Origin: Candidatus Melainabacteria bacterium
Lineage (GTDB): Bacteria > Cyanobacteriota > Vampirovibrionia > LMEP-6097
Reading direction: 5' to 3'
Assembly: GCA_028817775.1 (NCBI GenBank)
Contig: JAPPOW010000230.1
Coordinates: forward strand, 1-57,221
Length of the DNA stretch: 57,221 nt
Below the pieces are notes generated by a model that saw only the letters and a list, made by a program, of their open reading frames with translations, was not told where the DNA came from and did no database searches. The position numbers were made by a program, and so were the translations under genes. This document shows positions 4,410 to 55,348 of this stretch, in pieces. Every line of letters begins with the position of its first letter. Position 1 is the stretch's first letter.

Positions 4410-4413
4410 CACT

Positions 4414-4495: not shown

Positions 4496-4497
4496 AT

Positions 4498-4809: not shown

Positions 4810-4848
4810 CTGTTGTAATCTCCTTTGTTTGTCCGAACAACAGCAGAA

Positions 4849-4887
4849 ATTATATACTTTAATCAAGAAATGACACCTAATTTCTTG
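4849..4887. promoter_or_regulatory. Candidate promoter (-10 TATAAT on the minus strand at 4849-4854) overlapped by an 8-8-8 palindrome CAAGAAAT-N8-ATTTCTTG (4864-4887), in the divergent precursor/porin intergenic region
   Basis: Read directly. Position is appropriate for the precursor promoter and for an operator shared with the divergent gene at 4945. No experimental support. Confidence 0.3.
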
Positions 4888-16460: not shown

Positions 16461-17045
16461 ATGAGCTTTAGGAATATAGGCAATGTCGCTATCCTAGGTT
16501 TGGCTGCTCTTGCAGCAGGCGATAGCCCTGAGCAGGTCCCGCAGCCAGCAAGGCAAGATCAAGTAGTTGTCTCTGAAGAGAGAATTTTAGAACTACTTGT
16601 CAAGGCTCAGGCAATTATAGATAGAAGGATAGAACAGAAGCCAATTCAAACTGATGATCTATTGCTTGTTTTTGGACAGCTTTATCAACGTGGTTGTAGG
16701 GATACAGAAGATTTATGCCAGGCTTATTCAATTGCAGAGGAGCTCATATCAGAATTCAATAAGCTAGATAAACAAGAACAAGTCGAGCTCTTGCGTTTTG
16801 TAAATATGAACTTGGATTCTGATCGGCTTTATAGTGAAGAAAAACAATATTTGCAGGAGCACATTTTAGCTTTGATAAATGAGCTAGATCATGGAACAAA
16901 ACTTGAGTTAGATGATTTTATGTTTCTTGCTAGTTTAAGACCCAAAGCTTCAAGCCCGCTTTTGGCAGCTCTACAGGTTTATTTTGGACCAAGCCCAATC
17001 TTGAATAGAAGATTTTTGTTAGCAAGCTTGCATGCTGCAAACTAG
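16461..17045 (+). CDS. Hypothetical protein
   Basis: ORF only. Possible signal peptide (NVAILGLAALAAG). No family recognised. Confidence 0.45.
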   Translation: MSFRNIGNVAILGLAALAAGDSPEQVPQPARQDQVVVSEERILELLVKAQAIIDRRIEQKPIQTDDLLLVFGQLYQRGCRDTEDLCQAYSIAEELISEFNKLDKQEQVELLRFVNMNLDSDRLYSEEKQYLQEHILALINELDHGTKLELDDFMFLASLRPKASSPLLAALQVYFGPSPILNRRFLLASLHAAN

Positions 17046-17189
17046 GTACTGTTCACAAAGTTTGAGAATAAGGCTTGCGAGTATGAAAAAGTATTTAAAT
17101 TAAAGATTTTACTTCGTACACCCGAAGTTTGCTTGTAGCAAATGAGGGCGAGCGTAACGCAGTTATCGGGCTTTGTGAACAGTACCTAG
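17042..17189 (+). repeat. Family-B structured repeat (copy B1, 148 bp) with perfect 19-bp outer inverted repeats
   Basis: CTAGGTACTGTTCACAAAG ... CTTTGTGAACAGTACCTAG enclose the core AAGGCTTGCGAG...CCCGAAGTT-TGCTtgtAGCA-AATGAGGGCGAGCGTAACGCAGTTATCGGG, which is shared with five other loci. Confidence 0.85.
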
Positions 17190-21360: not shown

Positions 21361-21380
21361 GACGGATTATTATAGCAATT

Positions 21381-21477
21381 TTAGCCACCCATGCCTTAAC
21401 CTTTACCATTTTTCAGGATAATTGCATAGTTTGGAATTATCTCAAAAAGTGGTAAAGGTTAAGGCATGGGTGGCTAA
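21381..21477. repeat. 97-bp palindromic element (28-bp perfect outer stem plus inner hairpin), 20 bp upstream of nadA
   Basis: TTAGCCACCCATGCCTTAACCTTTACCA (21381-21408) is the exact reverse complement of 21450-21477. The loop holds an inner hairpin (GATAATT...AATTATC). Single copy in this window. Confidence 0.8.
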
Positions 21478-21549
21478 ACGTTAAGTAAATATATAATCGA
21501 GGCCTGGCAAGAGGCTCTTTGCTAGAATTATCTCCCTCGAGGTCAAATT

Positions 21550-21732
21550 ATGGCAGTACCAAAGAAAAATCATTCGCACCAAAGACAGCACAAAAGAAGA
21601 GCTAATTGGAAAGGCAAATTAGTAGAAGTAACTAATTGTTCTAATTGTGGTGCCCTCAAAAGACCTCACCACGTTTGCGGCGAGTGTGGATTTTATAACG
21701 GTCGCAAATTCAAAGACACTGACGCAGAATAG
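21550..21732 (+). CDS. rpmF: 50S ribosomal protein L32
   Basis: MAVPKKNHSHQRQHKRRANWK...CSNCGALKRPHHVCGECGFYNGR: typical L32 with a zinc-ribbon Cys pair. Confidence 0.93.
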   Translation: MAVPKKNHSHQRQHKRRANWKGKLVEVTNCSNCGALKRPHHVCGECGFYNGRKFKDTDAE

Positions 21733-21841
21733 CTCTAAAATAACCCAATAGCTTTGTTCTGTGAGTCCTCATTGGCTTCAGCCAACTTCGGACACGCCCT
21801 TTGGGCTTCACATGCCTCGCTCTTGGGCATTTTAGAACTAT
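21728..21841 (-). repeat. Family-B structured repeat (B2, reverse orientation) directly after rpmF
   Basis: Reverse complement reads ...CAAGAGCGAGGCATGTGAAGCCCAAAGGGCGTGTCCGAAGTTGGCTGAAGCCAATGAGGACTCACAGAACAAAGCTATTGGG. Copy-specific outer stem AATAGCTCTAAAAT / ATTTTAGAACTATT (1 mismatch). Confidence 0.8.
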
Positions 21842-21860
21842 TCTATAATCACAACAGTCA

Positions 21861-22824: not shown

Positions 22825-23355
22825 TTACCTTCTACGAAGAAAACTTGAAGAACCGAGTGAGCCACCACGACGGTTACCTGTTGCACTATTAGAACCTAGA
22901 CCACTATTACGTCTGCTGGCACCAAAGAAGCTTCTTGAGCCAAGTGCACCATTGCGTCCACCTCTTCTGGCACTAGTTGAACCTAAACTGCCATTGCGTC
23001 CGCCTCTTCTTGCGCTACTTGAACCCAAGCCAGCATTGCGTCTTGAAAGTCCAGAGGAGCCAAGACTATTACGGCTATCATTACGATGAGTTAAGTTGGT
23101 GAGACTGTTACGAGTGTCGTTGCGATGAGTCAGGGTGGTGAGACTATTGCGTGTATCGTTGCGGTGTGTGAGTGTAGTTAAACTGTTACGAGTATCATTT
23201 TTAGATCTGATTCTACTGAGATTATTGCGCAATGCGCCTGCTCTATTGGAGAGACTTGATCTGCGAGAGCCAGAAGCGTAGCTATTACGGCTGCGTCCAC
23301 GACTACTAGAGCCGATGCCTTCATTATTGCTTCCACGTATTCCTCTTGCGACCAT
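22825..23355 (-). CDS. Arg/Ser/Gly/Asn-rich repetitive (RGG-like) hypothetical protein
   Basis: 176-aa ORF with NDTRNSLTTLTHR x3 and GSLGSTSARRGGRNG x2. No clear SD. The mirror plus-strand ORF is also open, so coding status is uncertain. Confidence 0.4.
   Translation of the reverse strand: MVARGIRGSNNEGIGSSSRGRSRNSYASGSRRSSLSNRAGALRNNLSRIRSKNDTRNSLTTLTHRNDTRNSLTTLTHRNDTRNSLTNLTHRNDSRNSLGSSGLSRRNAGLGSSSARRGGRNGSLGSTSARRGGRNGALGSRSFFGASRRNSGLGSNSATGNRRGGSLGSSSFLRRR
22949..23195. repeat. Two adjacent imperfect tandem-repeat arrays (42 bp x2-3 at 22949-23050; 39 bp x3 at 23079-23195) inside the RGG-like ORF
   Basis: Read directly. Units CCATTGCGTCC(A/G)CCTCTTCT... and CGTTGCG(A/G)TG(A/T)GT...GAGACT(A/G)TT(G/A)CG(T/A)GT(A/G)T. 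Confidence 0.75.
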
Positions 23356-23401
23356 TAATTGAATTGAAACATGGCTAAGTTAAGACTAGGTAAAGAAACT
23401 T

Positions 23402-23520
23402 AGATTTATTACGAAAGACACAAGAGCAAGGCTTGCGAGCCCCGAAGGGGTTTAGTCGAAGTTTATTTACATAAATGAGACCTCGCGTAACGCAGCTATT
23501 GGGTTTTTCGTGATGAATCT
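23402..23520 (+). repeat. Family-B structured repeat (B3)
   Basis: ...CAAGAGCAAGGCTTGCGAGCCCCGAAGGGGTTTAGTCGAAGTTTATTTACATAAATGAGACCTCGCGTAACGCAGCTATTGGG... with imperfect outer stem AGATTTATTACGAAAGA / TTTTTCGTGATGAATCT. Confidence 0.8.
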
Positions 23521-23537
23521 TGTTATATAATTAGCTT

Positions 23538-26859: not shown

Positions 26860-26872
26860 AATGATAATTATA

Positions 26873-27000
26873 ACCTTTCTGTAGGGCACAAGAACGAGGC
26901 ATGCGAGCTAAGAAAACAGCAGGTTTTCTTAGTTTACCCGAAGTTTATTTCCATAAATGAGGGCGAGCATAACAAAGTTATTGGGCTCTACAGAAAGGTT
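26873..27000 (+). repeat. Family-B structured repeat (B4) filling the rpmH-rnpA intergenic space
   Basis: AACCTTTCTGTAGGGC...CAAGAACGAGGCATGCGAGCTAAGAAAACAGCAGGTTTTCTTAGTTTACCCGAAGTTTATTTCCATAAATGAGGGCGAGCATAACAAAGTTATTGGG...GCTCTACAGAAAGGTT. Confidence 0.8.
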
Positions 27001-27133
27001 ATAGGCTGATTTTTTTGCGTCCGCGTGCACGTCTGCGTGCAAGAACTTTACGGCCGCCAGGGCTGGCCATTCTGGCACGAAAACCACTGGTTCTTTTGCG
27101 TTTTCTTTGCGATCCACGTAAAGTCATTTTCAT
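26999..27133 (-). CDS. rpmH: 50S ribosomal protein L34
   Basis: [44 protein letters not shown]: canonical L34. Start at ATG 27133, not the ORF-track 27181. Confidence 0.93.
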
Positions 27134-32048: not shown

Positions 32049-32372
32049 CTATTGCACCTCTAAAGTTATGTAATCTTGCAAAGCTTCATACTTAGCTTCA
32101 CCAATTCCAGGAACACGTTTGAGCTCCTCAATACTATTAAATCTGCCGTTATTCTTGCGATCATCAATGATACGCTGAGCCAAAGCTGGCCCAATCCCGG
32201 GTAAATTATCAAACTCACGCCAATTAGCTAGATTGAGATTGATTTTATATACCTTAAGCTCATCAGTCTTAGTCTCAATGGCATAATGCTCGAATTTATA
32301 ATCACGACTAAAGTAAATGCCGACAGCAAAGAAAATACTGAACGCTAAGATTACTAAAGAAATCTTTTTCAT
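32049..32372 (-). CDS. comEA: ComEA-like helix-hairpin-helix DNA-binding protein
   Basis: N-terminal TM anchor (MKKISLVILAFSIFFAV), then INLNLANWREFDNLPGIGPALAQRIIDDR...FNSIEELKRVPGIGEAKYEAL. Start ATG 32372 overlaps the upstream stop (ATGA). Confidence 0.8.
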   Translation of the reverse strand: MKKISLVILAFSIFFAVGIYFSRDYKFEHYAIETKTDELKVYKINLNLANWREFDNLPGIGPALAQRIIDDRKNNGRFNSIEELKRVPGIGEAKYEALQDYITLEVQ

Positions 32373-33331
32373 GCTGGACTCAGAGTCCCAACCGACATCA
32401 TTTTTTGGCATTGTTCTAAATATCTAACGATTTGAGAACCGTTGCTACCATCACTAGTAGGTACTGCTTTGTTCTCAATACAATCTAAGAAATGCTTACA
32501 CTCAAGACGAAGTGGCTCATCATTGGCATAGACTGGTTTCTCAACAGTCAGAGAACCATCAGCATTACGGCTATATAACTCCAACTTATTTTCCTTGAAT
32601 ACATCATTCAAAACAGCAGTCTTCTTACTACCATTTACCGTAAGCAAAGCTTGTTTCTGTGGATCTAACCAACTGTTGTGAATATGACCACCAATATTAT
32701 TCGGGAATACCAAATCTACGTGAACTACATCCACGACAGCATCATTTGCACTTGCCCAAGCACGTACCGATAAAATATCCTCTGGTTCTGCAGAAAGTAA
32801 ATAGGCCATCATTGATAAATCGTGAGGAGCTAAATCCCACATAACGTTTGAATCACGTCTGTGATTAGGGTTAAAGTTACGACGGTCAGAATTGATATAG
32901 TTGATCTCACCAAGCTCACCAGATTCAATTAAAGTCTTGAGCTTGTTAACAGCTGGATGATACAAAAGTAAATGACCAACCATCAAAACCAAATCGTTTT
33001 CCTGAGCAATACTGTGTAACTCCTCAGCTTCATTAAAGTTCTGAGCCAATGGCTTCTCAACGTAAACATTCTTGCCAGCAAGTAATGCTTGATGAGCTAA
33101 CTGATAATGAGTGCTCGATGGAGTTGCAATTACTAAACCATCAAAATCTTTGCTCAATAAGTCATTAAAATTATCAATACATTCAACTTGGGGATGATTT
33201 CTTTGGATAAACTCTATAGTCTCAGGATTGCGGTCGCATGCATACGCCAAGACTCCTAGTTCGCTAAAATTTCGAACAAGGTTTTTACCCCAGTGGCCGC
33301 AACCTACAATAGCTATTTGCACAGCACCCAT
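32369..33331 (-). CDS. Gfo/Idh/MocA-family NAD(P)-dependent oxidoreductase
   Basis: IAIVGCGHWGKN Rossmann start and EKPLA motif. Start ATG 33331 (MGAVQIAIVG). The ORF-track extension (..AVANEDS..) is simply read-through of repeat B5. Confidence 0.8.
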   Translation of the reverse strand: MGAVQIAIVGCGHWGKNLVRNFSELGVLAYACDRNPETIEFIQRNHPQVECIDNFNDLLSKDFDGLVIATPSSTHYQLAHQALLAGKNVYVEKPLAQNFNEAEELHSIAQENDLVLMVGHLLLYHPAVNKLKTLIESGELGEINYINSDRRNFNPNHRRDSNVMWDLAPHDLSMMAYLLSAEPEDILSVRAWASANDAVVDVVHVDLVFPNNIGGHIHNSWLDPQKQALLTVNGSKKTAVLNDVFKENKLELYSRNADGSLTVEKPVYANDEPLRLECKHFLDCIENKAVPTSDGSNGSQIVRYLEQCQKMMSVGTLSPA

Positions 33332-33335
33332 AATA

Positions 33336-33467
33336 GCAAATTGGCTTACTTTATAAGGTTCAATAGCTTTGTTATTTGAGTCCTCATTGGCTACAGCCAA
33401 CTTCGGACCCGCCCATTCTGGGCTTCAAATGCCTCGCTCTTGAACCTTTTAAAGCAAGCCGAATTGC
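33336..33467 (-). repeat. Family-B structured repeat (B5, reverse orientation), 5 bp upstream of the oxidoreductase start
   Basis: Reverse complement contains CAAGAGCGAGGCATTTGAAGCCCAGAATGGGCGGGTCCGAAGTTGGCTGTAGCCAATGAGGACTCAAATAACAAAGCTATTG. About 26-bp imperfect outer stem. Confidence 0.8.
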
Positions 33468-37662: not shown

Positions 37663-39759
37663 ATGACCAATCCACTCTTGAATTATCAGGAATTTGTGCC
37701 CTATGAGCAAATCAAAGCTGAACATATAGTGCCAGCAGTTAAGCAGGCAATTGAGCAATCTCAAGCTGAATTGGAGCAGATACTTGCTAAGCAGGATTTG
37801 AATTTTGCTGGAGCCATGCAGTCATTTATCGAGATGGAGAAAATTCTTGAGCGAGTTTGGAATCCAGTCGAGAATTTGCTTAGTTTGATGGGGCAGGATG
37901 ATATTCGTGATGCAGCCAATGAAGCACGCCCACTAGTAGTTGAGTTCTATAACAACTACTCGCTTGATCCAAGGGTATATAAATTAGTCAAAGATTATTC
38001 GCAGACTGATGAAGCCAAAGCTTTGACCGGTGAGCGCAAGCGTCACCTCGAAACAACTCTATTGGATTTTAGACTCTCCGGTGCTGAGCTTGAAGGTAAG
38101 GATAAAGAAGAGTTCAAAGAACTTAATCTTAAACTCTCTGAGCTCTCTCAAAAATTTTCAGACAATGCTACTGATTCCAAGTTTGAACTGGTGATCGCGG
38201 ACTCTAGTGATTTAGCAGGTTTGCCTGATGATATTCTTGCTGGCGCTAAACGCAAAGCTGATGAGATGCGCGAGCAAGGAGCAGAGATTGCAGCAGATGC
38301 TTGGCTCTTCAATCTTGATTATCCATCTTATGGACCCTTTATGAAGTTCGCTGACAGTGGTGCATTGCGCAAACAGCTTTATTTAGCATACTTAGCCAAA
38401 GCAACTACTAATGCTAATCGTGGTCTGCTCGGCGAGAAAGACGATTCACTTGATAATGAACCATTGATCGCTCAAATTTTTGCAGCCAAGTTGCGCAAAA
38501 CTAAATTGCTAGGTTTTAAGAACTATGCTGAGCTGAGTTTGGAAACTAAAATGGCACCAAGTCCTGAGGAGGTGACAGAATTCTTACAAAGACTAGCTTC
38601 TAAGTCTAAAGCCTTGGCTCAAAGTGAGTATCAAGATCTAGTAGCCTACCAAAAAGAGATTGGCTACCATAATACAGAAAATAACCCAGAGAAAATCTAT
38701 CCATGGGATCGCGACTATCTCTCTGAGAAATTACGCAAGGCTAAGTTTGACTTCGATACTAATTTAACTAAGCCATATTTTGAGCTTCGTAACACCATCG
38801 ATGGCATGTTCAATATCGCTAGAACCCTTTTTTCAATTGAGCTTGAGCAGGTTAATAATATTGAAGCTTGGCATGATGATGTTGAAGTTTATCAATTGAA
38901 GAATAAAGATGGTTCTTTGATTGGTAGTTTCTATATGGATCTCTACCCGCGTGATATCAAACGCCAGGGTGCTTGGGTGATGCCATTGGTGGCAGCTTCT
39001 ACTGATATCAATGCTCAGCGTATCAAGCCACAATGCACTTTGGTTTGTAATCTCACTAAACCACATGAAGGCGAGCCAAGCTTGCTGACTCATATGGAAG
39101 TAGTAACTTTATTTCATGAATTTGGTCATGCTCTGCACCACTTGTTCTCGACTGTTGAGCTAGAGCCGCTTTCTGGAACCAATGTGGAGTGGGACTTTGT
39201 TGAATTGCCGTCACAACTCAATGAAAATTTTGCTTGGGAGCGTGAGTCGCTTGAGACCTTTGCCAAGCATCATGAGACTGGTGAAGCCATTCCTCAAGAC
39301 CTGCTTGATAAGATGCTTGCAGCAAGGACTTTCAATGAGGGACTAGCCTGTATTAGACAGCTAGAGTTTGGTTTGTTTGATCTAGCTATTCATATGCGTG
39401 AGAGCGCTGAAGATAGCCGCTCGCCAAATGATATTTTCAAAGAGATAGTAGATAAGTATGGTTTGTTTGAAGTTTGGCAAGGAACTAACTTCCCTTGTTC
39501 TTTCTCACATATTTTTGCAGGCGGCTATGCTGCTGGTTACTATAGCTATAAATGGGCTGAAGTACTTGAGGCTGATGCTTTCTCTCGTTTCCAAAAGGAA
39601 GGGGTGCTCAACTCTAGTCTAGGACAAGAATATAGAGAGAAGATTTTAGAGCGCGGGGATGCTGAGCCGCCGATGGAATTATTCAAAGATTTTATGGGAC
39701 GTGAACCGAAAGAAGATGCTTTGCTTGAAAGAATGGGTTTGGAGGTAACTAATGTCTAA
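37663..39759 (+). CDS. M3-family zinc metallopeptidase (oligopeptidase A / dipeptidyl carboxypeptidase-like)
   Basis: HEFGHALHH zinc motif, downstream E in VELPSQ, about 700 aa. Overall M3A pattern. Confidence 0.88.
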   Translation: MTNPLLNYQEFVPYEQIKAEHIVPAVKQAIEQSQAELEQILAKQDLNFAGAMQSFIEMEKILERVWNPVENLLSLMGQDDIRDAANEARPLVVEFYNNYSLDPRVYKLVKDYSQTDEAKALTGERKRHLETTLLDFRLSGAELEGKDKEEFKELNLKLSELSQKFSDNATDSKFELVIADSSDLAGLPDDILAGAKRKADEMREQGAEIAADAWLFNLDYPSYGPFMKFADSGALRKQLYLAYLAKATTNANRGLLGEKDDSLDNEPLIAQIFAAKLRKTKLLGFKNYAELSLETKMAPSPEEVTEFLQRLASKSKALAQSEYQDLVAYQKEIGYHNTENNPEKIYPWDRDYLSEKLRKAKFDFDTNLTKPYFELRNTIDGMFNIARTLFSIELEQVNNIEAWHDDVEVYQLKNKDGSLIGSFYMDLYPRDIKRQGAWVMPLVAASTDINAQRIKPQCTLVCNLTKPHEGEPSLLTHMEVVTLFHEFGHALHHLFSTVELEPLSGTNVEWDFVELPSQLNENFAWERESLETFAKHHETGEAIPQDLLDKMLAARTFNEGLACIRQLEFGLFDLAIHMRESAEDSRSPNDIFKEIVDKYGLFEVWQGTNFPCSFSHIFAGGYAAGYYSYKWAEVLEADAFSRFQKEGVLNSSLGQEYREKILERGDAEPPMELFKDFMGREPKEDALLERMGLEVTNV

Positions 39760-41143
39760 ATTAACAGTTGAGGTGATTACAGGGGAGCCCTATGGCTTTA
39801 ATGAAGATCCCGGACTTAATGAGCGTAAGCCTGCTTTGACTCAATACTTGCCTAAGGAGCGCAAGCTCAAATTATTTCTTGGTCCGAAATCCAAGCTTAG
39901 TCTGAGCAAGATCCGTCAACGAGTTTCTGATGTTGATTGGAAACATGTTTCAGAGACTGAAGTAGAGATTGATACTGATAGTCTTGATGCTGCTCAAGCT
40001 GAAGCCCTCTATGAAATGATTGCTCTTAAAAGTTTTGTCTTTGATAAGTACAAAACTTCAGCGGCTGAACGCCACGTCCAGGTCAAGCGTTTAGCCTTCA
40101 AGAAAAAGAAACCAGAAGGCTTCAATTCTCGTTTACGTGATGAAATTATTACTGGAGTTAAATTCTGCCGCGATATAGTTTCTAGTAATGCTGATACTAT
40201 CAATCCTGGTCAGATGCAACGCTTTGCTGAAGAGATTGCTAAGAACTCAAAGAATGTTAAGTGCAAAACTATCAATGTTACTCAAGCTCAGAAAAAGGGC
40301 ATGGGTGCACTACTGGCTGTAGGTGCTGAATCACTAAAAAATTCACCAGTTGATTTTCATCCTCGTCTAGTGCAGCTAGATTTCACTGGTGCTAAGGCTG
40401 CCAAGTCTAAAGAAGTTAAGCATATAGTTCTAGTGGGTAAGGGGATTACTTTTGATACTGGTGGACTTTGCCTCAAGCCAACTCAATACATGCTTGATAT
40501 GAAGTCTGATATGGCTGGCTCAGCGACAGTGCTCTCAGTGATGAAAGTGCTTGCTAAGATTGCTGGCAAGGTTGGAAGCAATATCAAGGTCACTGGTATC
40601 ATGGCATTGACCGAGAATGGTTTTGGAGCAAGTAGCTACAAACCTGGTGATGTACTTAAAGCAATGAACGGTAAAACTATCCAGGTGGTGGATACTGATG
40701 CGGAAGGTAGATTGGCTCTTGCTGACGCTTTGAGTTATGCTTCAAGTCTCAAGCCGGATATCATTATTGACCTGGCTACTCTGACTGGTTCAATCGTTGC
40801 TACTTTAGGAGAGGTGGCTGCTGGTGCTATGGGTGACGAGGATTTGTTTACTGAAGTCAATAAAGCATTTGAACGTGAAGGTGAAAAAATCTGGCGCATG
40901 CCACTTTATGATTACTACAAAGATTCACTCAAATCAGAGATCGCTGATATCAAACACTGTAATACGAGACCAGATGCGCTTTGCGCTGGAATTTTCCTCA
41001 AAGAATTTGTCGATGAGAATATTGATTGGTTGCATCTCGATATTGCTGGTTTAGGTTTTATTGAAAATGATGGGCTCTGGGCTTACAAGGGTGCAACTGG
41101 TTTTGCAGTAAAAGGTTTAGTTAAGTACATTCTTTCCCAGTAA
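39752..41143 (+). CDS. pepA: Leucyl aminopeptidase (M17)
   Basis: VGKGITFDTGGLCLKP, DMKSDMAG, VVDTDAEGRLALAD, DLATLTG: M17 signatures. Start overlaps the M3 gene end by 8 nt. Confidence 0.9.
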   Translation: MSKLTVEVITGEPYGFNEDPGLNERKPALTQYLPKERKLKLFLGPKSKLSLSKIRQRVSDVDWKHVSETEVEIDTDSLDAAQAEALYEMIALKSFVFDKYKTSAAERHVQVKRLAFKKKKPEGFNSRLRDEIITGVKFCRDIVSSNADTINPGQMQRFAEEIAKNSKNVKCKTINVTQAQKKGMGALLAVGAESLKNSPVDFHPRLVQLDFTGAKAAKSKEVKHIVLVGKGITFDTGGLCLKPTQYMLDMKSDMAGSATVLSVMKVLAKIAGKVGSNIKVTGIMALTENGFGASSYKPGDVLKAMNGKTIQVVDTDAEGRLALADALSYASSLKPDIIIDLATLTGSIVATLGEVAAGAMGDEDLFTEVNKAFEREGEKIWRMPLYDYYKDSLKSEIADIKHCNTRPDALCAGIFLKEFVDENIDWLHLDIAGLGFIENDGLWAYKGATGFAVKGLVKYILSQ

Positions 41144-41198
41144 AAGTTAATACGTAAAGTATCTTGTCGAGGGGCATTATGTTTGTTAAAATTTCCTT

Positions 41199-41975
41199 AT
41201 GATACAAATTGTAGATGGGCCTTTGCTCGCTGTTCACAAGCGGGCACGCAGGCAGGTTGTGGCGCAGACAGGTCAACGAAAGCAACTAGCTGAGCAAGCA
41301 CGGACTGCGACTGAATACGATCAGTTGCCAGCTCAATATTTAAGTTTGATTCACGCAGCAGGAGTAGAAGATCCGAGGGGCGGCCCCAATGAGCAAGATA
41401 GGGAAGCACTGGGATTAACTATGGATGCTCTTACTAGCTACGCAAAAATTTTGGAGACAAAAGATAGAGAAGCCAAACGACTAGCAGACAGACAAGAGTT
41501 CGATCAGATAGAGCAAGAGAAAGCTATCCTGGTTAAGCAGCTCTTGCCTGATGTGATTAGTTTTTTGGAGAGCGAAGCTACCAAGGCAGAATTAAGCGAG
41601 CGCTTTGGCAAGAAGGCTTTTAGATATGACTTTATTAATGAGGATCTGCAAGTTGGGCCGCAATTTAGGCAGCAGGCTAGAGCCCGTAATTGTTTTGCCA
41701 ACTATGATAATGGCAAGGTTTATAGTTTTAGTCTTGGTCCAGATATAGTGCCAGAAATTAATCAAGATCCTGCATTGGCTGAGCAGATAGCAAGATGTTT
41801 CAATTTTAAGCATCGTGGAATATCTTTCTTGTCTGATGAACTCTATAGAGATCCTGATTTGAGTGAGCTTAAGGATGTTCTAGAAGCTAGGCTGCAAGTA
41901 AAAACTGGTTCCTTGCGAAGAACTTGGAATAACTTAGTCGGTGCTAGCCAGGCTCCAGCTGTTTCAAGCAGCTAA
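41199..41975 (+). CDS. Hypothetical protein
   Basis: 258-aa ORF. The first ~70 codons are locally GC-richer and open on both strands. No family recognised. Confidence 0.45.
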   Translation: MIQIVDGPLLAVHKRARRQVVAQTGQRKQLAEQARTATEYDQLPAQYLSLIHAAGVEDPRGGPNEQDREALGLTMDALTSYAKILETKDREAKRLADRQEFDQIEQEKAILVKQLLPDVISFLESEATKAELSERFGKKAFRYDFINEDLQVGPQFRQQARARNCFANYDNGKVYSFSLGPDIVPEINQDPALAEQIARCFNFKHRGISFLSDELYRDPDLSELKDVLEARLQVKTGSLRRTWNNLVGASQAPAVSSS

Positions 41976-42020
41976 TCGCTAGACTTTGATTAAGCCTTTT
42001 GAGATGCTATTATTGCTTGA

Positions 42021-43295
42021 ATGCAAACCAAAGAACTAGCAAAATATTTTGGTGAATATGGCGGGCAATTCGTGCCAGAGACCTTGATGCCAGCTTTGGC
42101 TGAGCTTGAGATTTGCTACCTTGAAGCAATTGAAGATCAAGACTTCAAGGACCAACTTAATTACTATTTGCAAAACTATGTTGGTAGACCATCACCGCTT
42201 TATTACGCTGAATCTTTGACTAAACACTATGGCGGTGGCAGGATCTATCTCAAACGTGAGGATCTTAATCACACTGGCGCCCACAAAATTAATAACGCTA
42301 TTGGACAAGCTCTATTAGCCAAACGACTTGGCAAAAAATTAATCGTGGCAGAGACAGGAGCCGGACAGCATGGAGTCGCTACAGCTACAGCTTGTGCCTT
42401 GCTTGATTTAGAGTGCAAAGTATTTATGGGAGCCGAGGACATCAAGCGTCAAGCACCAAATGTCTATCGTATGGAACTACTGGGAGCCCAAGTGGTGCCA
42501 GTAGAATCAGGTTCACGTACACTTAAGGATGCGACATCAGAAGCGATTCGTTACTGGGTGACTAATGTAGTTTCCACTCACTATATTATTGGCAGTACTG
42601 TCGGTCCTCATCCTTATCCAACTTTAGTTAGAGACTTTCAAAGAATTATTGGAGACGAGGTCAAGCAGCAATTCTGGGAAGCTTATAGTCTGAGCTCAGG
42701 GCTTCATATGCAAGGCTTGCGAGCCCAAAGGGCTTGTCCGAAGTTGGCTGTAGCCAATGAGGACTCGCATAACGCAGCAGATGGAGCTATGAGCCCAGAC
42801 TATATTATTGCTTGTGTTGGTGGTGGCTCAAACGCTATGGGAATTTTCTATCCCTACCTTGAAGAAGCCCGCAAGCAAGAAACTAAATTGATTGCAATTG
42901 AAGCGGCTGGTGAAGGACTTGATGGCAAGCACGCAGCTTCAATCTCTAAAGGTAAGCCAGGAGTCTTGCACGGCTCCAAGAGTTACTTGCTGCAAGATGA
43001 GTTTGGGCAAATTCAAGAAGCTCACAGTATCTCTGCTGGGCTTGATTACCCGGGTATTGGTCCTGAGCATAGCTTTCTTAATGATGAAGGTTTAGTTGAT
43101 TACCAATCAATTACAGATAAAGAAGCGCTTGCTGCATTTAAATTACTTTGCAGGCTTGAAGGAATTATTCCAGCGCTAGAAAGTTCACATGCACTTGCTT
43201 ACTTGGAGAAACTTAAAACTAATCCAGATCAAACTATTGTGCTAAATCTCTCTGGTCGTGGTGATAAAGATCTCCAGCAAATATCAAACTGCTAG
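42021..43295 (+). CDS. trpB: Tryptophan synthase beta chain carrying a ~34-codon in-frame family-B repeat insertion
   Basis: [65 protein letters not shown]. The segment between IIG and [11 protein letters not shown] is 47 aa, versus about 15 aa in E. coli TrpB as recalled from memory. Confidence 0.92.
42694..42794 (+). repeat. Family-B structured repeat (B6) embedded in-frame in trpB
   Basis: GCTCAGGGCTTCATATGC-AAGGCTTGCGAGCCCAAAGGGCTTGTCCGAAGTTGGCTGTAGCCAATGAGGACTCGCATAACGCAG-CAGATGGAGCTATGAGC, translated ...[34 protein letters not shown]. Confidence 0.8.
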
Positions 43296-43300
43296 GAGCA

Positions 43301-43921
43301 CTATGATTCTGATGCTGCTCGTTCGGCAAGTCGCCGCTTAGTGGCTTCAACCACAGCTTTACTTATGGCTCTATTCTCTCTCATTAATAATTTCCAGTCT
43401 TGTTCACTTAAATATTGTTCGAAACAATCTGCTATTGAATAAGCAAGCTTGTAATCTTGGTGTTTCAAACCTAGACCAGGCTTGCGGAAGGACTTACCTT
43501 CTTCATCAATAAAGCTAATAGTAAATTCTTTATCTGTATTTTTGGTTGGTCTGAGTCGGTGCGTGCAGTGGATTAAGATTTTCTCGGGTTTTCTACTCAG
43601 TCCTAAGTCTGCAATTTGCTCGTCTGATAAACCAAGGTAAATAACTGCTCTGATTTTTTTATCATTATTATCAACATTTACTAGCTTGCAGCTCTCAACA
43701 TTAGCAGGAGCGTTTAATACAATCTCTCTAATATGGTTGAGCAGTCTTAAAGTTTTCTGCCTTCTTTCTTGAGCTTTGGCTGTTGCTGCCAATGCCTTGG
43801 CACGAGAACCCGTGCCATCGTTCTTGGTTACTGGCTGAGCGAGTTCAACAAAATCAAATTTTCTAGCTCGATTTTTACCGAGACCTCTACCAGTAGGTCT
43901 GCCAACATGTACTACCTTCAA
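43301..43921 (-). CDS. Hypothetical basic protein
   Basis: 206-aa ORF. No family recognised. Confidence 0.5.
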   Translation of the reverse strand: MKVVHVGRPTGRGLGKNRARKFDFVELAQPVTKNDGTGSRAKALAATAKAQERRQKTLRLLNHIREIVLNAPANVESCKLVNVDNNDKKIRAVIYLGLSDEQIADLGLSRKPEKILIHCTHRLRPTKNTDKEFTISFIDEEGKSFRKPGLGLKHQDYKLAYSIADCFEQYLSEQDWKLLMRENRAISKAVVEATKRRLAERAASES

Positions 43922-44065
43922 AGATTAAGCTCCATATTTCAACCGGGATGGGTGTTATTGTAACATGGGGCTGTGCTAGTTTATAGCTAGGAGACCAATG
44001 CTGCAGAATTGTTGATGATCAATACAGGTTGCACTATGGTTTATTATTAAGCTACCATTGGGTTT

Positions 44066-44773
44066 ATGTTAATCAATCAAGATTCTAGTACCTGGACAGC
44101 CATGCAGGCTGGTAGAAGGAAAAGAAAGTCACATCGCAAGCCTGGCTTTAATCCACCTAAGCCATTAGTGATGCCAAGAAGTGCCAGAGAAGCTGATTTA
44201 GTAGCAGCTTCAAAGCCAGTTGCTAAAACTCAAAAAGCTAGTGCTCCAGCTTTGAAACCTGACCCTGAAGATATTTTTTACTTTGGTTATCCAGCTCACT
44301 TTATTTACGAGAACTTAACTACTTGGGATTTAACAGAAGTAGGTGCCGAAAATATTAATAGATTGGGCTTTGAGAAACCACATGCCTTTTTTGACTCTTT
44401 GGGGGCAGTTTTGCGAAGGTCTGAGCAACCACCTTTGATAATTTATAGTGCATTTGGGGATCATAATGTTGCAAGTTTCCAACGAAACTTTGATGGTCCT
44501 TTTGGCTTGTCCCTGCCAGATAGTCTTTCAAGTGCCTACTCAACAAGTGGCTTTCTTGAGCTTTTGAACGAATTTTGTGAGAGAGAAAATATTCCAGAAG
44601 CACAGAGACCTTTTGTTTATATCATGGACTATTATGATGGGGCACTTGGTAAGGATAAAGAAATGAAAGCAGCTTATCCTAGAACTTTAGATATTGAAAA
44701 TACTGGTGATACAGAGATTTTTGGACATGCCAAAGATGCGGTCTTAAGTTATAGAGCGGCAATCAAACAATAA
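44066..44773 (+). CDS. Hypothetical protein
   Basis: 235-aa ORF with a basic N-terminus (RRKRKSHRKPG). No family recognised. Confidence 0.5.
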   Translation: MLINQDSSTWTAMQAGRRKRKSHRKPGFNPPKPLVMPRSAREADLVAASKPVAKTQKASAPALKPDPEDIFYFGYPAHFIYENLTTWDLTEVGAENINRLGFEKPHAFFDSLGAVLRRSEQPPLIIYSAFGDHNVASFQRNFDGPFGLSLPDSLSSAYSTSGFLELLNEFCERENIPEAQRPFVYIMDYYDGALGKDKEMKAAYPRTLDIENTGDTEIFGHAKDAVLSYRAAIKQ

Positions 44774-44798
44774 AAAGAGCGGTCATTGACCGCTCTTT
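44774..44798. terminator. Bidirectional intrinsic terminator hairpin between convergent genes
   Basis: AAAGAGCGGTC-ATT-GACCGCTCTTT: perfect 11-bp stem whose A/T-rich ends give a U-tract on either strand. Confidence 0.7.
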
Positions 44799-44852
44799 AT
44801 CCCACTTAGGTTAAGCTTAGAGTAATACTCCACAAGAATCCCCTCATTAAGC

Positions 44853-46352
44853 TTATCCTAGGTTAATTAATGTCTGAAGGACGTCATCAGATCTCTGAAC
44901 TGTTGTTGCATTGAACTGAAGACCTCTTTGGAAGGCAATCAATTCAGCGAACTCATCAGCGATGTTAACGTTTGATGACTCAAGTGCACCAGAAACAATC
45001 TGAGTAGCATTGATTGATCTTGCGTTTCTGTTAAACGGACCATCAATTACAGATGTAGCCGCTAGACCAGAGTTAGCAGTTTGTTGGAATCTATTTGCAC
45101 CAATAGACTTAAGACCATCCGGGTTAATGAAGTTACTCATTAGTAATCTAGCAATCTTGAGTTCCTCTGATCCAGGACCAATGATTGAGATAGTACCATT
45201 GGAAGAGATTGTGAAACTATTAGTTTCTCTCTCTAATGCTGAATCTTGGTCATACAAGAAATTAGGAATCTTGATTGATGAATATAAATCAGAAACATCT
45301 GCAACTTTCATATGTTCAAAGTCATCATTACCAACAGTAATATTAGAGCCAACTTGGGTTGTTGCTGCTGCACCTGAGAAAACCATTGTGTCACTAGTCT
45401 GAGTAGTAGAATCGTACTCAATATTAGCGAATGCATCTTCAAGTGAGTCAACACCAGGTTCTAATCTGATTCTCATTTGCAACTTGTCATCTGAACCATT
45501 GGTCATTTCAAATGAAAGTACACCATCTAGAATTGAAGCATTAGTATCAATTGCTGCAGTGAACAAGTCATCTGAAGTACCACCATTGGCATCATCGAAA
45601 GTAAAGAGTAATTTGTTGTCGTCTCGTCTAGAGATTGTCAAATCACCTGGAGTACCAGTTGTCACACCAGTGTTCTCATCGATTAAACCACCACGGATAC
45701 TAAGTTCTTGAAGTACTCCAGCAGTAAATGCAGGGGTAGAACCAGTAACGTTGGTAACAGTTGGAGTAGGAAGAGCTAAGTTAGGTGCACTCAAACCATT
45801 GTTTGGATACATGGTTGGGCTACCAGCCGGACCAATTGTTTGGTCTGTGTGGAAAGTGATTGCACTATAACCACTGATAGATTTTACTTTCTCTGTTGCA
45901 TGGTCATAGAGAGTTGCTGCCATAACTTTGGCACCATCTGCTGTAACCAAGTTTCCATCAGCGTCTAGAAGGAAGTGACCATCACGAGTATACTCTGGGT
46001 TGAGGATCTCGTTGGTTCCATCTGGAGTTGATGCCGAGATTACAAAGAAACCGTTTCCTGAAATTGCAAGGTCAGTTACGTTTCCTGTTTGTTTTAGTGA
46101 ACCTTGTGAGAATACCGAGTTGATATCACTCAAAGTTAAACCTGTACCAATTTGGCCTGGGTTCTTACCACCTTTAATGATAGATGGCGCTGAAGCATTT
46201 GATAGTGTACTGCTAACTGCTTCTGAAAAGTGTACTCTGGAGCCTTTGAAGCCGGTCGTGTTGACGTTGGCGATATTGTTTGCAATGACTGAGATCGCAT
46301 TCTGTTGCGTACTCAGGGCCCCTGCTCCTGTAAATAACGATGGGATTGGCAT
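44853..46352 (-). CDS. flgE: Flagellar hook protein FlgE
   Basis: N-terminus SLFTGAGALSTQQNAISVIANNIANVNTTGFKGSRVHF and C-terminus GALESSNVNIADEFAELIAFQRGLQFNATTVQRSDDVLQTLINL match flagellar axial-protein termini, closest in style to Bacillus-type FlgE. 499 aa. AGGAG RBS. Confidence 0.85.
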   Translation of the reverse strand: MPIPSLFTGAGALSTQQNAISVIANNIANVNTTGFKGSRVHFSEAVSSTLSNASAPSIIKGGKNPGQIGTGLTLSDINSVFSQGSLKQTGNVTDLAISGNGFFVISASTPDGTNEILNPEYTRDGHFLLDADGNLVTADGAKVMAATLYDHATEKVKSISGYSAITFHTDQTIGPAGSPTMYPNNGLSAPNLALPTPTVTNVTGSTPAFTAGVLQELSIRGGLIDENTGVTTGTPGDLTISRRDDNKLLFTFDDANGGTSDDLFTAAIDTNASILDGVLSFEMTNGSDDKLQMRIRLEPGVDSLEDAFANIEYDSTTQTSDTMVFSGAAATTQVGSNITVGNDDFEHMKVADVSDLYSSIKIPNFLYDQDSALERETNSFTISSNGTISIIGPGSEELKIARLLMSNFINPDGLKSIGANRFQQTANSGLAATSVIDGPFNRNARSINATQIVSGALESSNVNIADEFAELIAFQRGLQFNATTVQRSDDVLQTLINLG

Positions 46353-46364
46353 TTATTTTCTCCT

Positions 46365-47138
46365 TTATCTACCCAATGCTAATGTGGCTTCCAGTAATTC
46401 ATTAGCTGTTTGAGTAACCCTAGATACCGACTGGAATGATCTTTGGTATGCGATCAAGTCAACCATGTTGGCACTTAGGTCTGCGTTCGACGCCTCTAAT
46501 GCTCCAGACACAACTTGGGTTGCAGCAGTACCTGAACCCAACTCTTCTGCCGAGGAGTATTGAGGTGTTCCTGAATTGAGTGTTTCTCGATATTGGCTGT
46601 TGCCAATTGGTTCAAGCGCTTGATCATTTGCAAAACTCGCGAGTTGCAATTGAGCCAAGACTTGGAATGAGTCATCTCCCGATTCAAGAATTCTTATTTC
46701 ACCAGCCTGGGTGACTTCCATTGATTCGGTGGTGACAGGTAGTAGGATCTTAGATCCGCCTGAAGACAGTACGTAGTTGCCGTTTGCATCTACTAGTGCT
46801 CTCTCACCATCGAAGCTGAAATGACCTGATCTTGTGTAGATCACGTCACCAGTGGTGCTTTGTAAAGTAAAGAAACCTTTGCCTGTTAGTGCAAGGTCGG
46901 TAATTTGATTTGATGTTTTCAAGCTACCTTGGTTAAAGTTTGGTCTGATTGCTGCCACTGCAGCACCAGCGTATTGAGGATACTGACCGCTGCCTCTGCC
47001 TACTACACTTGAGAACTGTACTTTTTTCTCTTTGTAAGCGGTGGTATTAGTGTTAGCGATATTGTGTGCAACTACATCAATGGCAGATTGCATGCCTTTC
47101 ATTGTTGATGCGGATGATTTTAGTGCGCTAATTGACAT
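46365..47138 (-). CDS. Flagellar basal-body rod / hook-basal-body protein (FlgF/FlgG family)
   Basis: N-terminus MQSAIDVVAHNIANTNTTAYKEKKVQF and C-terminus GALEASNADLSANMVDLIAYQRSFQSVSRVTQTANELL. 257 aa. AAGGAG RBS. Confidence 0.8.
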   Translation of the reverse strand: MSISALKSSASTMKGMQSAIDVVAHNIANTNTTAYKEKKVQFSSVVGRGSGQYPQYAGAAVAAIRPNFNQGSLKTSNQITDLALTGKGFFTLQSTTGDVIYTRSGHFSFDGERALVDANGNYVLSSGGSKILLPVTTESMEVTQAGEIRILESGDDSFQVLAQLQLASFANDQALEPIGNSQYRETLNSGTPQYSSAEELGSGTAATQVVSGALEASNADLSANMVDLIAYQRSFQSVSRVTQTANELLEATLALGR

Positions 47139-47291
47139 AGTATCTCCTTAAGCTTTTTCGCTTAGTGTCATTATCTGCAAATAAGTCTTTTTTTGAACTT
47201 AGGCCTTTGGGGTATTTAGCTTCAATTAGATGGCCTAATTTCTTGATAAATACCGGATTTTAGTCCTCCGGCCTATAGTTTGTAGTTGATT

Positions 47292-49435: not shown

Positions 49436-49855
49436 TAAATATAGCACTTCCCCTTATCTTAGAGCATGGTTTAAATAATTCTTGCTTATCTTTAGTTTTG
49501 TAATTCAGCTGAGACATATAGTTGCTCTATTAGAAAAGTTTCTCCGAATATCAGACAAATTGCTTCCCATTCGGCGCAGCTGCTATCACAAAGTTATTGT
49601 TGTTTTGCTTTGCAAAACGAAAAGGCAACGTGAATCCGATATGAGAAGCAATTGTCTGAATTCTCCAAAACTTTTCTTAGACCCCAGCAGATTCTCTTTT
49701 CGCGAGTCTCAAGAAGCGGGCACAAAACAATTTCTCGGAGAAAACATTTGCAGGAAAATCAATACTAGCAAGATCGAAGATCTTGCCCATTTTCCGAAAC
49801 CGTTTTTCCGAAAATTCGTTTTGTGCTAAGCTTCGGACTGTTTCGCGATATGGTC

Positions 49856-49892
49856 GGAAGATCCTGACGTCGCAAAGCTCCTCAGGATGACC
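49856..49892 (-). repeat. Family-A hairpin element (A7)
   Basis: Reverse read: GGTCATCCTGAGGAGCTTTGCGACGTCAGGATCTTCC. Confidence 0.85.
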
Positions 49893-54082: not shown

Positions 54083-54089
54083 TTTTAGA

Positions 54090-54218
54090 TAGCATATGGT
54101 CGTTTCACTCCCTGCGTATGGCACTTCGTGCCTGCAAATTCTGCGCTGCAAATAGCAGGCGAAGCCATACGCAGGAGCTTTAGCTCCATATGCAGGGAGT
54201 GAAACGACCATATGCTAT
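54090..54218. repeat. 129-bp composite palindrome (27-bp perfect outer stem plus nested inner stems) between convergent genes
   Basis: ATAGCATATGGTCGTTTCACTCCCTGC (54090-54116) is the exact reverse complement of 54192-54218. Inner pairs GTATGGC/GCCATAC and TGCCTGC/GCAGGC. The bioF stop codon lies in the right arm. Confidence 0.85.
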
Positions 54219-55348
54219 TTACGAAGTAACCCCGCAACCCTCTCAATATCCCCAGCTTCATGAATAGAATTAATACAAATCCTTAAACGAGGATTAGGCA
54301 CTGTTGGTGGTCTAATTGCCACAACTAGGTAACCCGCTTCTTCTAACTCTTTGGCTTTAGCTTGAGCAGCTTCAGTGCTTGGCATATGAATTGCAAATAT
54401 CGGAGTGCCTTCGTTTGAGTAGTTGATCAATGCATTGGATTGCCACGTAGAGCTACGCTCTCCTCGCAATGACGTTTCAAACAACTCAATATTTTTTTGT
54501 AATTGATCACGCAATTCTTTACCTGCTGAAATTTCTTGCAAATGTTTAAGTGCAATTTGAGCTTGCAATGGAGGGTTTGCTGTTGAATAAATAAATGTTC
54601 GTGATTTGTTCTTGAGAAATTCAATTAATTCCTTGGAGCCAGCTATATAACCGCCTTCGAGCCCACCAGCTTTGGAGAGAGTACCCATTTGCACCACTAT
54701 ATTGTCCTTGGTGATCTTGCCAGCTTCAACTAATTCTTCAACCAAGCCAGCCCCATGGGAGCCAAGTACTCCAGTGCCATGAGCTTCATCGATATAGATG
54801 GAGGCATTGTTGGCTTGAGCAATTTCATTAATTTCGGGAAGTTTAGCTTTGTCACCATCCATACTGAAGACTGATTCAGTAACGATGAGTGATTTCTTGC
54901 CTTTGCTGCGGTGTTCTTGAATTAATTCTGCTAGATGTTTTGTGTTGTTGTGCTTATAGAAATATTTTTTAGCGCCGCTGAGTCTGATGCCATCTAAGAT
55001 ACAAGCATGGACATATTCATCAGCAAAAACAATATCGCGTGAGTTAAGAATTACAGAAAGTGTGCCGAGGTTAGCCATATAGCCGCAGTTGAAAATTAAG
55101 GCTGCTTCAGCCCCCTTCCACTGAGCGATAAAGTTTTCTAATTCTATGTGTTCATTGAATGTGCCACTAGTGATGCGTGAAGCACTAGCTCCGCGACGTG
55201 AAGCTGTCAGTGATAAGTCTCTGCGAGCTAAGCCTAAGTAATCATTAGAGCTAAAACTAATTAGATTAGAATCATAAACTTGTGCTTGGCGGTATAGATT
55301 TTTCTCACGCGCCTTGTTTAACTCTTCACTAAAGAACTCATTAAACAT
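54215..55348 (-). CDS. bioF: 8-amino-7-oxononanoate synthase-like PLP-dependent acyltransferase (BioF/Kbl family)
   Basis: [47 protein letters not shown] (PLP lysine). Start ATG 55348 overlaps the ubiX stop (ATGTTTAA). The ORF-track extension to 55516 runs into ubiX. Confidence 0.8.
54437..54473 (-). repeat. Family-A hairpin element, TTGC/GCAA variant (A11), in-frame inside bioF
   Basis: Minus read GTC-ATTGC-GAGGAGAGCGTAGCTCTACGTG-GCAAT-CC, translated [12 protein letters not shown]. Confidence 0.75.

Follow-up and report, generated by a model that had tools for sequence, protein, structure and literature searches.

How does an essential-looking reading frame come to contain a complete palindromic repeat, and which of the two, the peptide or the nucleic acid, is then conserved? 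The question is raised by trpB, which encodes the beta subunit of tryptophan synthase (TrpB1 type), on contig JAPPOW010000230.1 of a Candidatus Melainabacteria bacterium (assembly GCA_028817775.1). The contig was analysed over its whole length of 57,221 nucleotides, referred to here as the window. A sequence-only reading of this DNA had proposed that a dispersed repeat is translated in frame within an intact trpB, in the manner of the Rickettsia palindromic elements (RPEs). The data support that proposal. The added segment is probably an old, translated, RPE-like insertion of a selfish, non-autonomous hairpin repeat, similar to MITEs, the miniature inverted-repeat transposable elements, and constrained at the level of the nucleic acid.

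An additional segment within an intact TrpB

The trpB open reading frame (ORF; 42021-43295, + strand) is uninterrupted and encodes 424 amino acids. The equivalog model TIGR00263 matches the product in two stretches with 598.7 bits, against a cut-off of 392.45. TrpB chains of the PDB (385-400 residues) likewise match in two stretches, residues 10-220 and 258-421 (HMMER, E = 1e-165). The interruption between residues ~220 and ~258 recurs when 15 and, in a second alignment, 52 homologues are used, and also with solved TrpB structures. On either side of it the enzyme is conventional: the motif HTGAHKINN, which carries the lysine for pyridoxal 5'-phosphate (PLP), and the phosphate-loop sequence CVGGGSNA (GGGSN) are invariant across the TrpB alignments.

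The extra codons lie at 42693-42794 (+) and specify residues 225-258 (SSGLHM...DGAMS). In all alignments this amounts to 34 residues beyond canonical TrpB, in agreement with the earlier estimate; the excess is 38 residues over P0003, the closest insert-free orthologue. More than 50 TrpBs outside a four-member clade lack the segment.

An AlphaFold2 model built from 53 sequences (predicted template-modelling score, pTM, 0.85) places the insertion site between a helix at residues 209-225 and a strand at 261-266 that runs to GGGSN. The intervening residues 226-260 are coil, and the per-residue confidence (pLDDT) falls below 50 at 233-254. The remainder of the fold is intact, with target-normalised TM scores of 0.92-0.95 in Foldseek to PfTrpB and other TrpBs (TMt 0.94 to PfTrpB). 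Because this low-confidence coil lies outside a fold that is otherwise intact, the insert is predicted to be a disordered excursion at the strand end far from the PLP phosphate loop. The sequence-only reading had placed the insert close to the glycine-rich PLP loop. This holds along the chain, where seven residues separate the two, and is qualified by the model, in which the coil sits at the N-terminal end of the strand bound for GGGSN.

The segment is a complete structured repeat

The DNA that encodes the extra residues forms part of a repeat of 119 nt at 42685-42803 (+), in sense orientation and in frame, spanning approximately residues 222-261. A covariance model termed R1, built from a MAFFT alignment of 13 copies, matches it over model positions 1-120 with 122.8 bits (E = 5e-28). 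The antisense strand scores only 24.4 bits. Its outer stem is an inverted pair of 28 nt. The 5' arm (TATAGTCTGAGCTCAGGGCTTCATATGC; 42684-42711, +) comprises helices P1 and P2, and the 3' arm (GCAGATGGAGCTATGAGCCCAGACTATA; 42777-42804, +) ends in nine bases that are the conserved P-D-Y codons of TrpB. The arms are 82% complementary and the stem is evident from the folds and from covariation, which bears out the earlier description of a complete element with an imperfect outer stem.

Between the arms lies a conserved asymmetric core of 79 nt (42705-42783, +), delimited by the core alignment, the RNAalifold consensus and pair counts. Here, P2 (CATATGC/GCAGATG) is followed by an internal loop (AAGGCUU/AUAACGC), P3, the P4 hairpin (42723-42733), P5, a GAA/GA loop and the P6 hairpin (42743-42758). 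The computed folding energy of this copy is -61.6 kcal/mol (z = -6.1). A scan for intrinsic terminators found none at the element in trpB.

The repeat recurs in the window. The central 38 bases of the trpB copy are found again at 21760-21797 (-), where none is expected by chance, and the core also matches 33361-33417 (-). Direct-repeat families tie 42732-42785 to 21746, 33361, 23450, 26932 and 17140. The motif CGAAGTT-hairpin-AATGAG occurs six times, against 0.04 expected, and R1 recovers all six window copies with 66-123 bits. The copy upstream of an oxidoreductase gene (33341-33462, -) reads A-V-A-N-E-D-S in the corresponding frame, as the sequence-only reading had observed.

A strand-specific fold supported by covariation

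The six window copies share a common fold, in which a long outer stem of copy-specific sequence encloses an asymmetric three-way-junction core whose loops are conserved and rich in purines. Elements range from 105 to 170 nt. In every copy the ends pair over ~20-24 bp, and their sequence is loosely conserved: the outer arms are the most variable part of the element and retain only complementarity. P2 exists in two covarying versions, CAAGAGC/GCTATTG (type 1) and CATATGC/GCAGATG (type 2). It is followed by the internal loop RAGGCWU/RUAACRM, P3, an optional P4 of 0 to ~60 nt, P5, the GAA/GA loop and P6. The GAA/GA loop between P5 and P6 is invariant.

On the independent MAFFT alignment of 13 copies, RNAalifold finds 41 base pairs, 28 of which change on both sides. 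In this alignment 92.7% of cells are paired, as compared to 33-44% when partners are slid, and none of 500 shuffles reaches the observed values of pairing and covariation. The alignment fitted to R1 gives higher figures, with double changes at 34/41 pairs and 96.1% of cells paired.

The fold is better formed by one strand than by the other. On the sense strand 59 cells are G-U and 10 are A-C. The sense strand is the more stable in 31/33 copies, with a mean of -49.8 kcal/mol as compared to -39.5 kcal/mol for the antisense strand (Wilcoxon p = 1e-6). Copies with conserved unpaired core loops span distant members of the family.

The insert evolves as a nucleic-acid structure

The closest genome record belongs to another species, 'Candidatus Melainabacteria bacterium SI037S4_bin4' (JABHOV010000057, locus L005). 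It is syntenic with the window over a stretch that begins at pepA, includes trpB and ends in the flagellar rod genes, with a nucleotide identity of ~72-79%. Its TrpB of 426 amino acids contains a homologous insert at the same codon position and in the same frame and orientation, which makes it possible to compare the insert with the enzyme around it.

In the remainder of trpB (381 codons), the proportion of synonymous sites that differ (pS) is saturated at 0.716 and that of non-synonymous sites (pN) is 0.083, so the enzyme is under strong purifying selection in both lineages. In the insert (37 codons), pS is 0.309 and pN is 0.293. Peptide identity is 49% in the insert as compared to 88% in the rest of TrpB. 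By contrast, nucleotide identity of the insert is 73%, against 42% at fourfold-degenerate sites elsewhere in trpB (p = 9e-12). Since pN approximates pS and the nucleotides are this similar, the peptide appears unconstrained and the nucleotides are conserved beyond the neutral level. It is the nucleic-acid fold, and not the protein loop, that is conserved.

The pattern of substitution follows the fold. Comparison of the two species shows no change in 29 of the 41 stem pairs and changes on both sides in seven. Six of these seven are standard pairs in both species; the seventh exchanges an A-C mismatch for U-G. Two lie in P6. The other five are in the outermost stem, whose 5' arm follows the changes of the P-D-Y codons opposite (CCA GAC TAT in one species, GTT GAT TAC in the other).

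The reading frame is also kept. Indels of +2 and +1, situated 20 bases apart, shift and then restore the frame between the species. Across the family only 16/99 sense frames are open, as compared to 3/3 for the clear intragenic copies. These two observations argue for ribosomal read-through, and the insert is thus likely to be translated. Most copies of the family are closed in every sense frame, so the family was not built for coding; the open in-frame copies can be regarded as survivors of selection.

The two trpB inserts are not uniformly alike. In the P1/P2 columns, the window and SI037S4_bin4 copies are each other's closest relatives (75%, as compared to no more than 69% for other comparisons), and the stretch TCAGGGCTTCATATGCAAGGCTTGC is common to them and unseen in other copies. 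In P5-P6 (GTCCGAAGTTGGCTGTAGCCAATGAGGACTC), the window trpB copy shares 94% identity with both type 1 copies of the window, even though its own P2 is of type 2. This mosaic suggests that gene conversion from paralogues replaced the centre of an orthologous insert.

History of the trpB insertion

Four TrpBs, those of the window organism, SI037S4_bin4, P0002 and P0003, form a clade with 100% bootstrap support (neighbour joining). P0002 (locus L001, from Logan) is the sister of the SI037S4_bin4 protein with 94% amino-acid identity, and has only ~8 extra residues at the site. P0003 (locus L134) is insert-free, with a loop four residues shorter than canonical. The site therefore presents the full element in two lineages, a remnant in a third and nothing in the fourth. 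Measured from KxQ to P/V-D/N-Y, the loops of the four proteins are 42, 43, 16 and 4 residues long, against ~10 in canonical TrpB. The loop is abnormal in all four clade members and in none of the other ~50 TrpBs.

The simplest history would be a single old insertion followed by imprecise deletions, and the loops of P0002 and P0003 look like deletion scars. The sequence-only reading had asked whether the insert is polymorphic. It does vary within the clade; its homologue in another species means that it is neither recent nor strain-specific. It was also considered whether the element had brought the P-D-Y codons with it. This is less parsimonious, as insert-free P0003 (L134) and nearly all TrpBs have P-[DN]-Y.

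Two further metagenome assemblies of the window organism contain an identical insert, L003 in full and L004 as far as 42778. L004 (positions 1716-1799; European Nucleotide Archive ERZ23496742) is ~99% identical to the window, with four substitutions and one gap, up to that point inside the repeat. Beyond it follows the canonical 3' end of another copy (GCAGCTATTGAG...), which yields a truncated 'TrpB' of 272 amino acids (P0069). L004 is most likely an assembly chimera induced by the repeat.

Proposed origin and alternative explanations

Taken together, the structural and evolutionary data suggest the following sequence of events. In the ancestor of the small clade, one copy would have landed in trpB in sense orientation and in its sole open frame, within the loop that joins a helix to the strand bound for the PLP phosphate loop. 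Ribosomes would read through it and produce a disordered loop of 34-38 residues, which TrpB would tolerate, presumably by virtue of the surface position of the site. The insert would then have been retained in the window and SI037S4_bin4 lineages and deleted, partly or wholly, in the two others. Where retained, it would have evolved as a nucleic-acid structure, its stems saved by paired substitutions and its central hairpin probably overwritten by gene conversion from paralogous copies.

Several observations weigh against this explanation. There is no consistent target-site duplication across copies. TA could flank the trpB copy on both sides and is unseen at a copy in a MurT-like gene and at several intergenic copies, and the palindromic ends blur the boundary; a TA target duplication is unsupported across the family. 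No transposase or autonomous partner was noticed in the window, the collections not having been searched for split halves. Since neither duplication, partner nor transposase was found, mobility is argued from the dispersed copies and from presence and absence among orthologues. Simple cut-and-paste insertion leaves it unexplained that the ancestral P-D-Y codons form part of the outer stem. The order of branching inside the clade is split between 65% and 30% bootstrap support, and P0003 is possibly nested between insert-bearing lineages; a nested P0003 would call for two insertions at a single site or else a secondary loss that was clean. Later conversion or re-insertion, rather than selection, could account for the insert's low divergence. 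The case for translation is made from frame conservation. The window contains no second trpB, and one is possible in the remaining, unseen genome. Finally, the search pattern fixed some loop motifs, so that the conservation of CGAAG/UGAG is partly a matter of ascertainment. Among copies found independently of the pattern, that of SI037S4_bin4, reached through trpB, retains CGAAG...TGAG, and three reached through R1 (L086 at 7811, L008 and L006) retain a related version.

A neutral DNA process, template switching or mismatch repair in a quasi-palindrome combined with gene conversion from other copies, could instead maintain a hairpin that has no function in trpB: a change in one arm would be copied to its partner, and the stem would be able to grow into neighbouring sequence. 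The outer stem reaches the P-D-Y codons and its 5' arm tracks both their synonymous and their non-synonymous changes; P5-P6 matches the genome's own paralogues, as conversion would have it; and the arms of an orthologous pair of intergenic copies (L089 and L126) also change in step. A correction process acting equally on both strands should, however, leave as many A-C as G-T mismatches, in conflict with the census of 59 G-U and 10 A-C cells on the sense strand. Nor does it predict that the sense strand folds better by 10 kcal/mol on average, or that the unpaired loops of an asymmetric, non-palindromic core are conserved in distant copies. We consider such a process an unlikely, though not negligible, account of the insert. 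The opposite view, which we hold no more probable, is that the element is more than selfish DNA and represents a novel class of module, a structured and strand-specific RNA or single-stranded DNA, kept by purifying selection and acting in cis wherever it is located. If so, its function would explain why the fold is preserved even inside the trpB frame; possible roles include a processing or stability signal, a platform for binding proteins by means of the tandem G-A loops, and a ribosome-pausing device. The G-U excess speaks for a function of the single strand; a templated mechanism is favoured by the way in which the stem has spread into flanking codons.

Alternatively, the window and SI037S4_bin4 lineages could each have received an insertion, fairly recently, at the same hot spot in trpB, low divergence being then a sign of youth. 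In 65% of bootstraps the TrpB tree puts insert-free P0003 inside the clade, each trpB copy has a central hairpin closer to those of other copies than to that of its trpB counterpart, and over the whole element the window copy is 72% identical to the copy at L109 and 71% to that of SI037S4_bin4. Two independent events at an identical codon position, in identical frame and orientation, are nevertheless improbable. They would also leave unexplained the reciprocal best match of the P1/P2 columns (75%), the restriction of TCAGGGCTTCATATGCAAGGCTTGC to the two trpB copies, and the ~8-residue scar of P0002 and the loop of P0003 shorter by four, both of which fit imprecise deletion of an older insert. 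Excision of the element from the mRNA, by intron-like splicing or by processing and religation, would restore TrpB to canonical length and make the element a new kind of mini-intron whose stem brings the junctions together. An RNA-type, strand-specific structure conserved inside a coding region, an outer stem that pairs coding sequence on both flanks and a peptide with pN close to pS are all compatible with it. An excised segment would need neither an open frame in both species nor +2/+1 indels that restore it, in a family where only 16% of sense frames are open; most copies are intergenic and in either orientation, and Rfam offers no ribozyme or intron match even at E up to 10. Excision is accordingly a long shot. 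Least credible of all is that trpB is a decaying pseudogene or the insert an artefact of repeat assembly. The L004 contig does break inside the repeat, and trpB does not adjoin trpA. Against this stand the intact ORF with pN/pS of ~0.1 across 381 codons, the presence of HTGAHKINN and GGGSN, an identical insert in the independent assembly L003, and a diverged one in a different species from a different study. The translated, RPE-like insertion remains the preferred explanation.

Copies in other genomes and genes

A pattern scan of metagenome contigs returned 49 loci, of which ~28 have the architecture of the element. The other ~20, chance matches in a few cases and otherwise a conserved coding sequence (GACGAAGTTTTTCAACGCGTCAATGAG...), were discarded, as they have neither the 5' motif nor the fold. 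Applied to all loci collected, R1 finds 35 copies; the metagenomes contribute about 30 beyond those of the window. Abundant in the window genome, with six copies in 57 kb, the family also turns up in metagenomes and in further genomes that bear the label Melainabacteria or Cyanobacteria.

About 10% of copies (3-4 of ~33) are intragenic. The clearest parallel to trpB is a copy at 2183-2301 of L087 (...RKAHMQGLGARRACPKFVQTNEDEYNAADESFQ...), which lies within a MurT-like ORF and is read in the same frame as the trpB copy. Residues 8-48 and 91-137 of this protein align to residues 5-44 and 52-97 of Staphylococcus aureus MurT, which leaves ~35 additional residues immediately ahead of the GTNGKT loop. 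The contig ends 150 nt past the element, and the MurT-like gene is seen in part. A P4-less copy in L104 (765-874, -) is situated at the N-terminus of a PAS histidine kinase with an uncertain start codon, either within it or immediately upstream. The sole frame with an upstream ATG would add ...SPDARLTSPEVCYNANEGECNAADGAS..., the 3' half of which is read in the frame common to the trpB insert.

Most copies are intergenic, frequently between convergent genes and abutting stop codons. Many of them (17043-17188 in the window; L085, L089, L108, L110, L125 and others) occupy the entire convergent gap, and their palindromic ends, TAG...CTA or TTAA...TTAA, overlap the stop codons. This hints that the element prefers, or survives at, the ends of genes. 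No bias of orientation relative to genes is evident among intergenic copies, with three sense and two antisense in informative contexts. In the orthologous intergenic pair, L089 and L126, the arms change in step.

A second subfamily shares the architecture and has a different central hairpin, TGTAC/GTACA, and a longer, purine-rich junction. It is represented at 7811-7935 (-) of L086, 8947-9069 (+) of L008 and 6326-6448 (-) of L006; it occurs in metagenome-assembled genomes labelled 'Cyanobacteria bacterium REEB446' and 'Proteobacteria bacterium WB4_1_1465'. The latter label may be wrong, because the TrpB of this genome looks Vampirovibrionia-like.

Elsewhere the searches were negative. R1 has no match in the other 77 trpB loci, which come from diverse phyla. 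An exact 28-mer of the core is absent from the GTDB representative genomes, which is attributable to the variability of the family, and plasmid, phage and viral collections contain no copy. A profile of the insert peptide gave no candidates in the word index of a set of 5.8 billion proteins, the query being very short. Among 50% representatives, the lone HMMER match of the 40-residue peptide is a leucine-rich-repeat protein (E = 7e-4), a chance resemblance (GLKAITDCPKLEKLNAS); in a set clustered at 50%, insert-bearing proteins are probably concealed by representatives that lack the insert.

Relation to known repeats

In Rfam 15 no family reaches its gathering score for the element, a single tRNA being the sole match in the window. 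At E up to 10 the element matches only generic, miRNA-type hairpin models (best E at least 0.5) and no ribozyme, intron or riboswitch. No published description of the repeat family was found, which is not proof of absence. The repeat family is thus new to RNA databases. The GAA/GA loop, together with GCGAG/CGAGC in P3 of many copies, could form the sheared G-A pairs of kink-turns and related tandem G-A loops. This is a resemblance only: position 2b is U and not A, so the loop is not a canonical kink-turn.

The element behaves most like the RPEs. Like them, it is a palindromic repeat of ~100-150 bp in dispersed copies, and in both cases a minor share of the copies is found in frame within unrelated housekeeping genes, at positions that the protein fold can accommodate. 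In Rickettsia bellii, 53 of 526 RPEs are within protein-coding genes, a share that resembles the ~10% found here. In-frame copies that leave the ORF unbroken are seen in trpB of two species and, as far as the contig extends, in the MurT-like gene of L087. The likeness is one of behaviour, and membership in the Rickettsia RPE families proper is unlikely because the host phylum differs, the element being Melainabacteria-like. The element differs further in its asymmetric three-way-junction core with conserved loops, in its strand-specific fold and in that most copies are closed in all sense frames. RPEs are reported to lose their palindromic character progressively, whereas the palindrome of the element is upheld by compensatory change after insertion.

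The element shares with MITEs the terminal inverted repeats, found in all copies, and presence or absence at orthologous sites, found at trpB. In-frame RPE fusions and intragenic ERIC copies have both been described in a review of MITEs. The ERIC (intergenic repeat unit, IRU), Correia (NEMIS) and YPAL repeats, which are transcribed, hairpin-forming MITEs from Proteobacteria, also measure 100-150 bp, form a long stem from their ends and occupy short intergenic gaps, often just past stop codons. They are best conserved in their terminal inverted repeats, and Correia typically shows a TA duplication; the termini of the element are its most variable part.

Repetitive extragenic palindromic (REP) sequences and their REPIN doublets, associated with tyrosine transposases (RAYTs), are likewise abundant extragenic hairpins for which a strand-specific fold matters and whose stems are kept paired by evolution within the genome. 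REPs are 20-40 bp long and headed by GTAG or CGTC, REPINs being symmetric doublets, whereas the element has 105-170 nt, no such head and a non-palindromic core. By length, core asymmetry and the missing GTAG/CGTC head the element falls outside the REP/REPIN class, and no RAYT-like gene is present among the window ORFs scanned, which are part of the total. Small mobile hairpins that are intergenic and sometimes coding in frame are known as the double-hairpin elements of Allomyces mitochondria. The repetitive hairpin-forming elements of sponge mitochondria are similarly small and mobile, intergenic and sometimes in frame in coding regions. These mitochondrial elements are organellar and much simpler, without a conserved multi-helix core.

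In-frame palindromic insertions in core enzymes, largely deemed a curiosity of Rickettsia, thus extend to uncultured, non-photosynthetic relatives of the cyanobacteria. An insert that can be traced across species with saturated synonymous sites is a natural experiment on the competing constraints of fold and reading frame, and informs how new surface loops enter conserved enzymes. R1 provides a handle for a genome-wide census, which could reveal a mobilising enzyme or a host function. There is also a practical side, as such repeats break metagenome assemblies (L004) and create spurious ORF starts (the oxidoreductase gene and rnpA).

Other copies and features in the window

The five paralogous copies vary in P2, P4 and P6 and in their surroundings. 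The copy at 33341-33462 (-; R1 111.8 bits) has a type 1 P2, and its P5-P6 is 94% identical to that of the trpB copy. It stops ~10 nt short of the ATG (~33331) at which a Gfo/Idh/MocA-type oxidoreductase gene (ORF 32369-33400, -) probably starts, so that the outer stem's 3' arm contains the ribosome-binding region of that gene. The TTG at 33400, called mechanically as the start, is internal to the element and probably spurious; homology to oxidoreductases starts only at about residue 25 of the ORF begun there. A copy at 26869-27003 (+; 99.2 bits) with an enlarged P4 hairpin adjoins rnpA and likewise overlaps its called start. The remaining three lie between nadA and oppB (21725-21845, -; 106.6 bits), upstream of a DoxX-family gene (23401-23521, +; 116.7 bits), with a different P6 (TTTAT/ATAAA), and in the gap between two convergent genes, which the copy fills (17043-17188, +; 66.5-82.3 bits), again with an enlarged P4.

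The trpB gene is solitary, with no trp gene beside it (39752-47290) and trpA non-adjacent in the window, SI037S4_bin4 and L001. A leucyl aminopeptidase gene lies on one side and flagellar rod genes on the other, an order kept in three related genomes. Three ORFs that flank trpB in the window (41199-41975, +; 43301-43921, -; 44066-44773, +) have no Pfam or NCBIfam match and are missing from the syntenic position in SI037S4_bin4 and L001, where pepA, trpB and the flagellar rod genes are contiguous. They are lineage-specific insertions.

The window contains further long hairpins and palindromes that are unrelated in sequence to the trpB element (21380-21478; 54086-54221; 4413-4496 and 49859-49891; 118-160; 49720-49826). 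They include hairpins with 47-nt arms and with 36-nt arms around a 64-nt centre, a perfect palindrome of 21 bp and a recurring GATCCTGACGTC...CTCAGGATGAC unit. Weak R1 matches at 21381-21477, 54086-54221 and 116-162 were rejected as unrelated long palindromes; they score through the outer stem only, and on both strands. The genome seems rich in distinct families of hairpin repeats. Tandem repeats within ORFs occur at 4562-4661 (at least five units of 15 nt; ORF 4552-4866, -) and at 22949-23199 (units of 39-42 nt; ORF 22825-23355, -), and suggest short peptide repeats in two small proteins of unassigned function.

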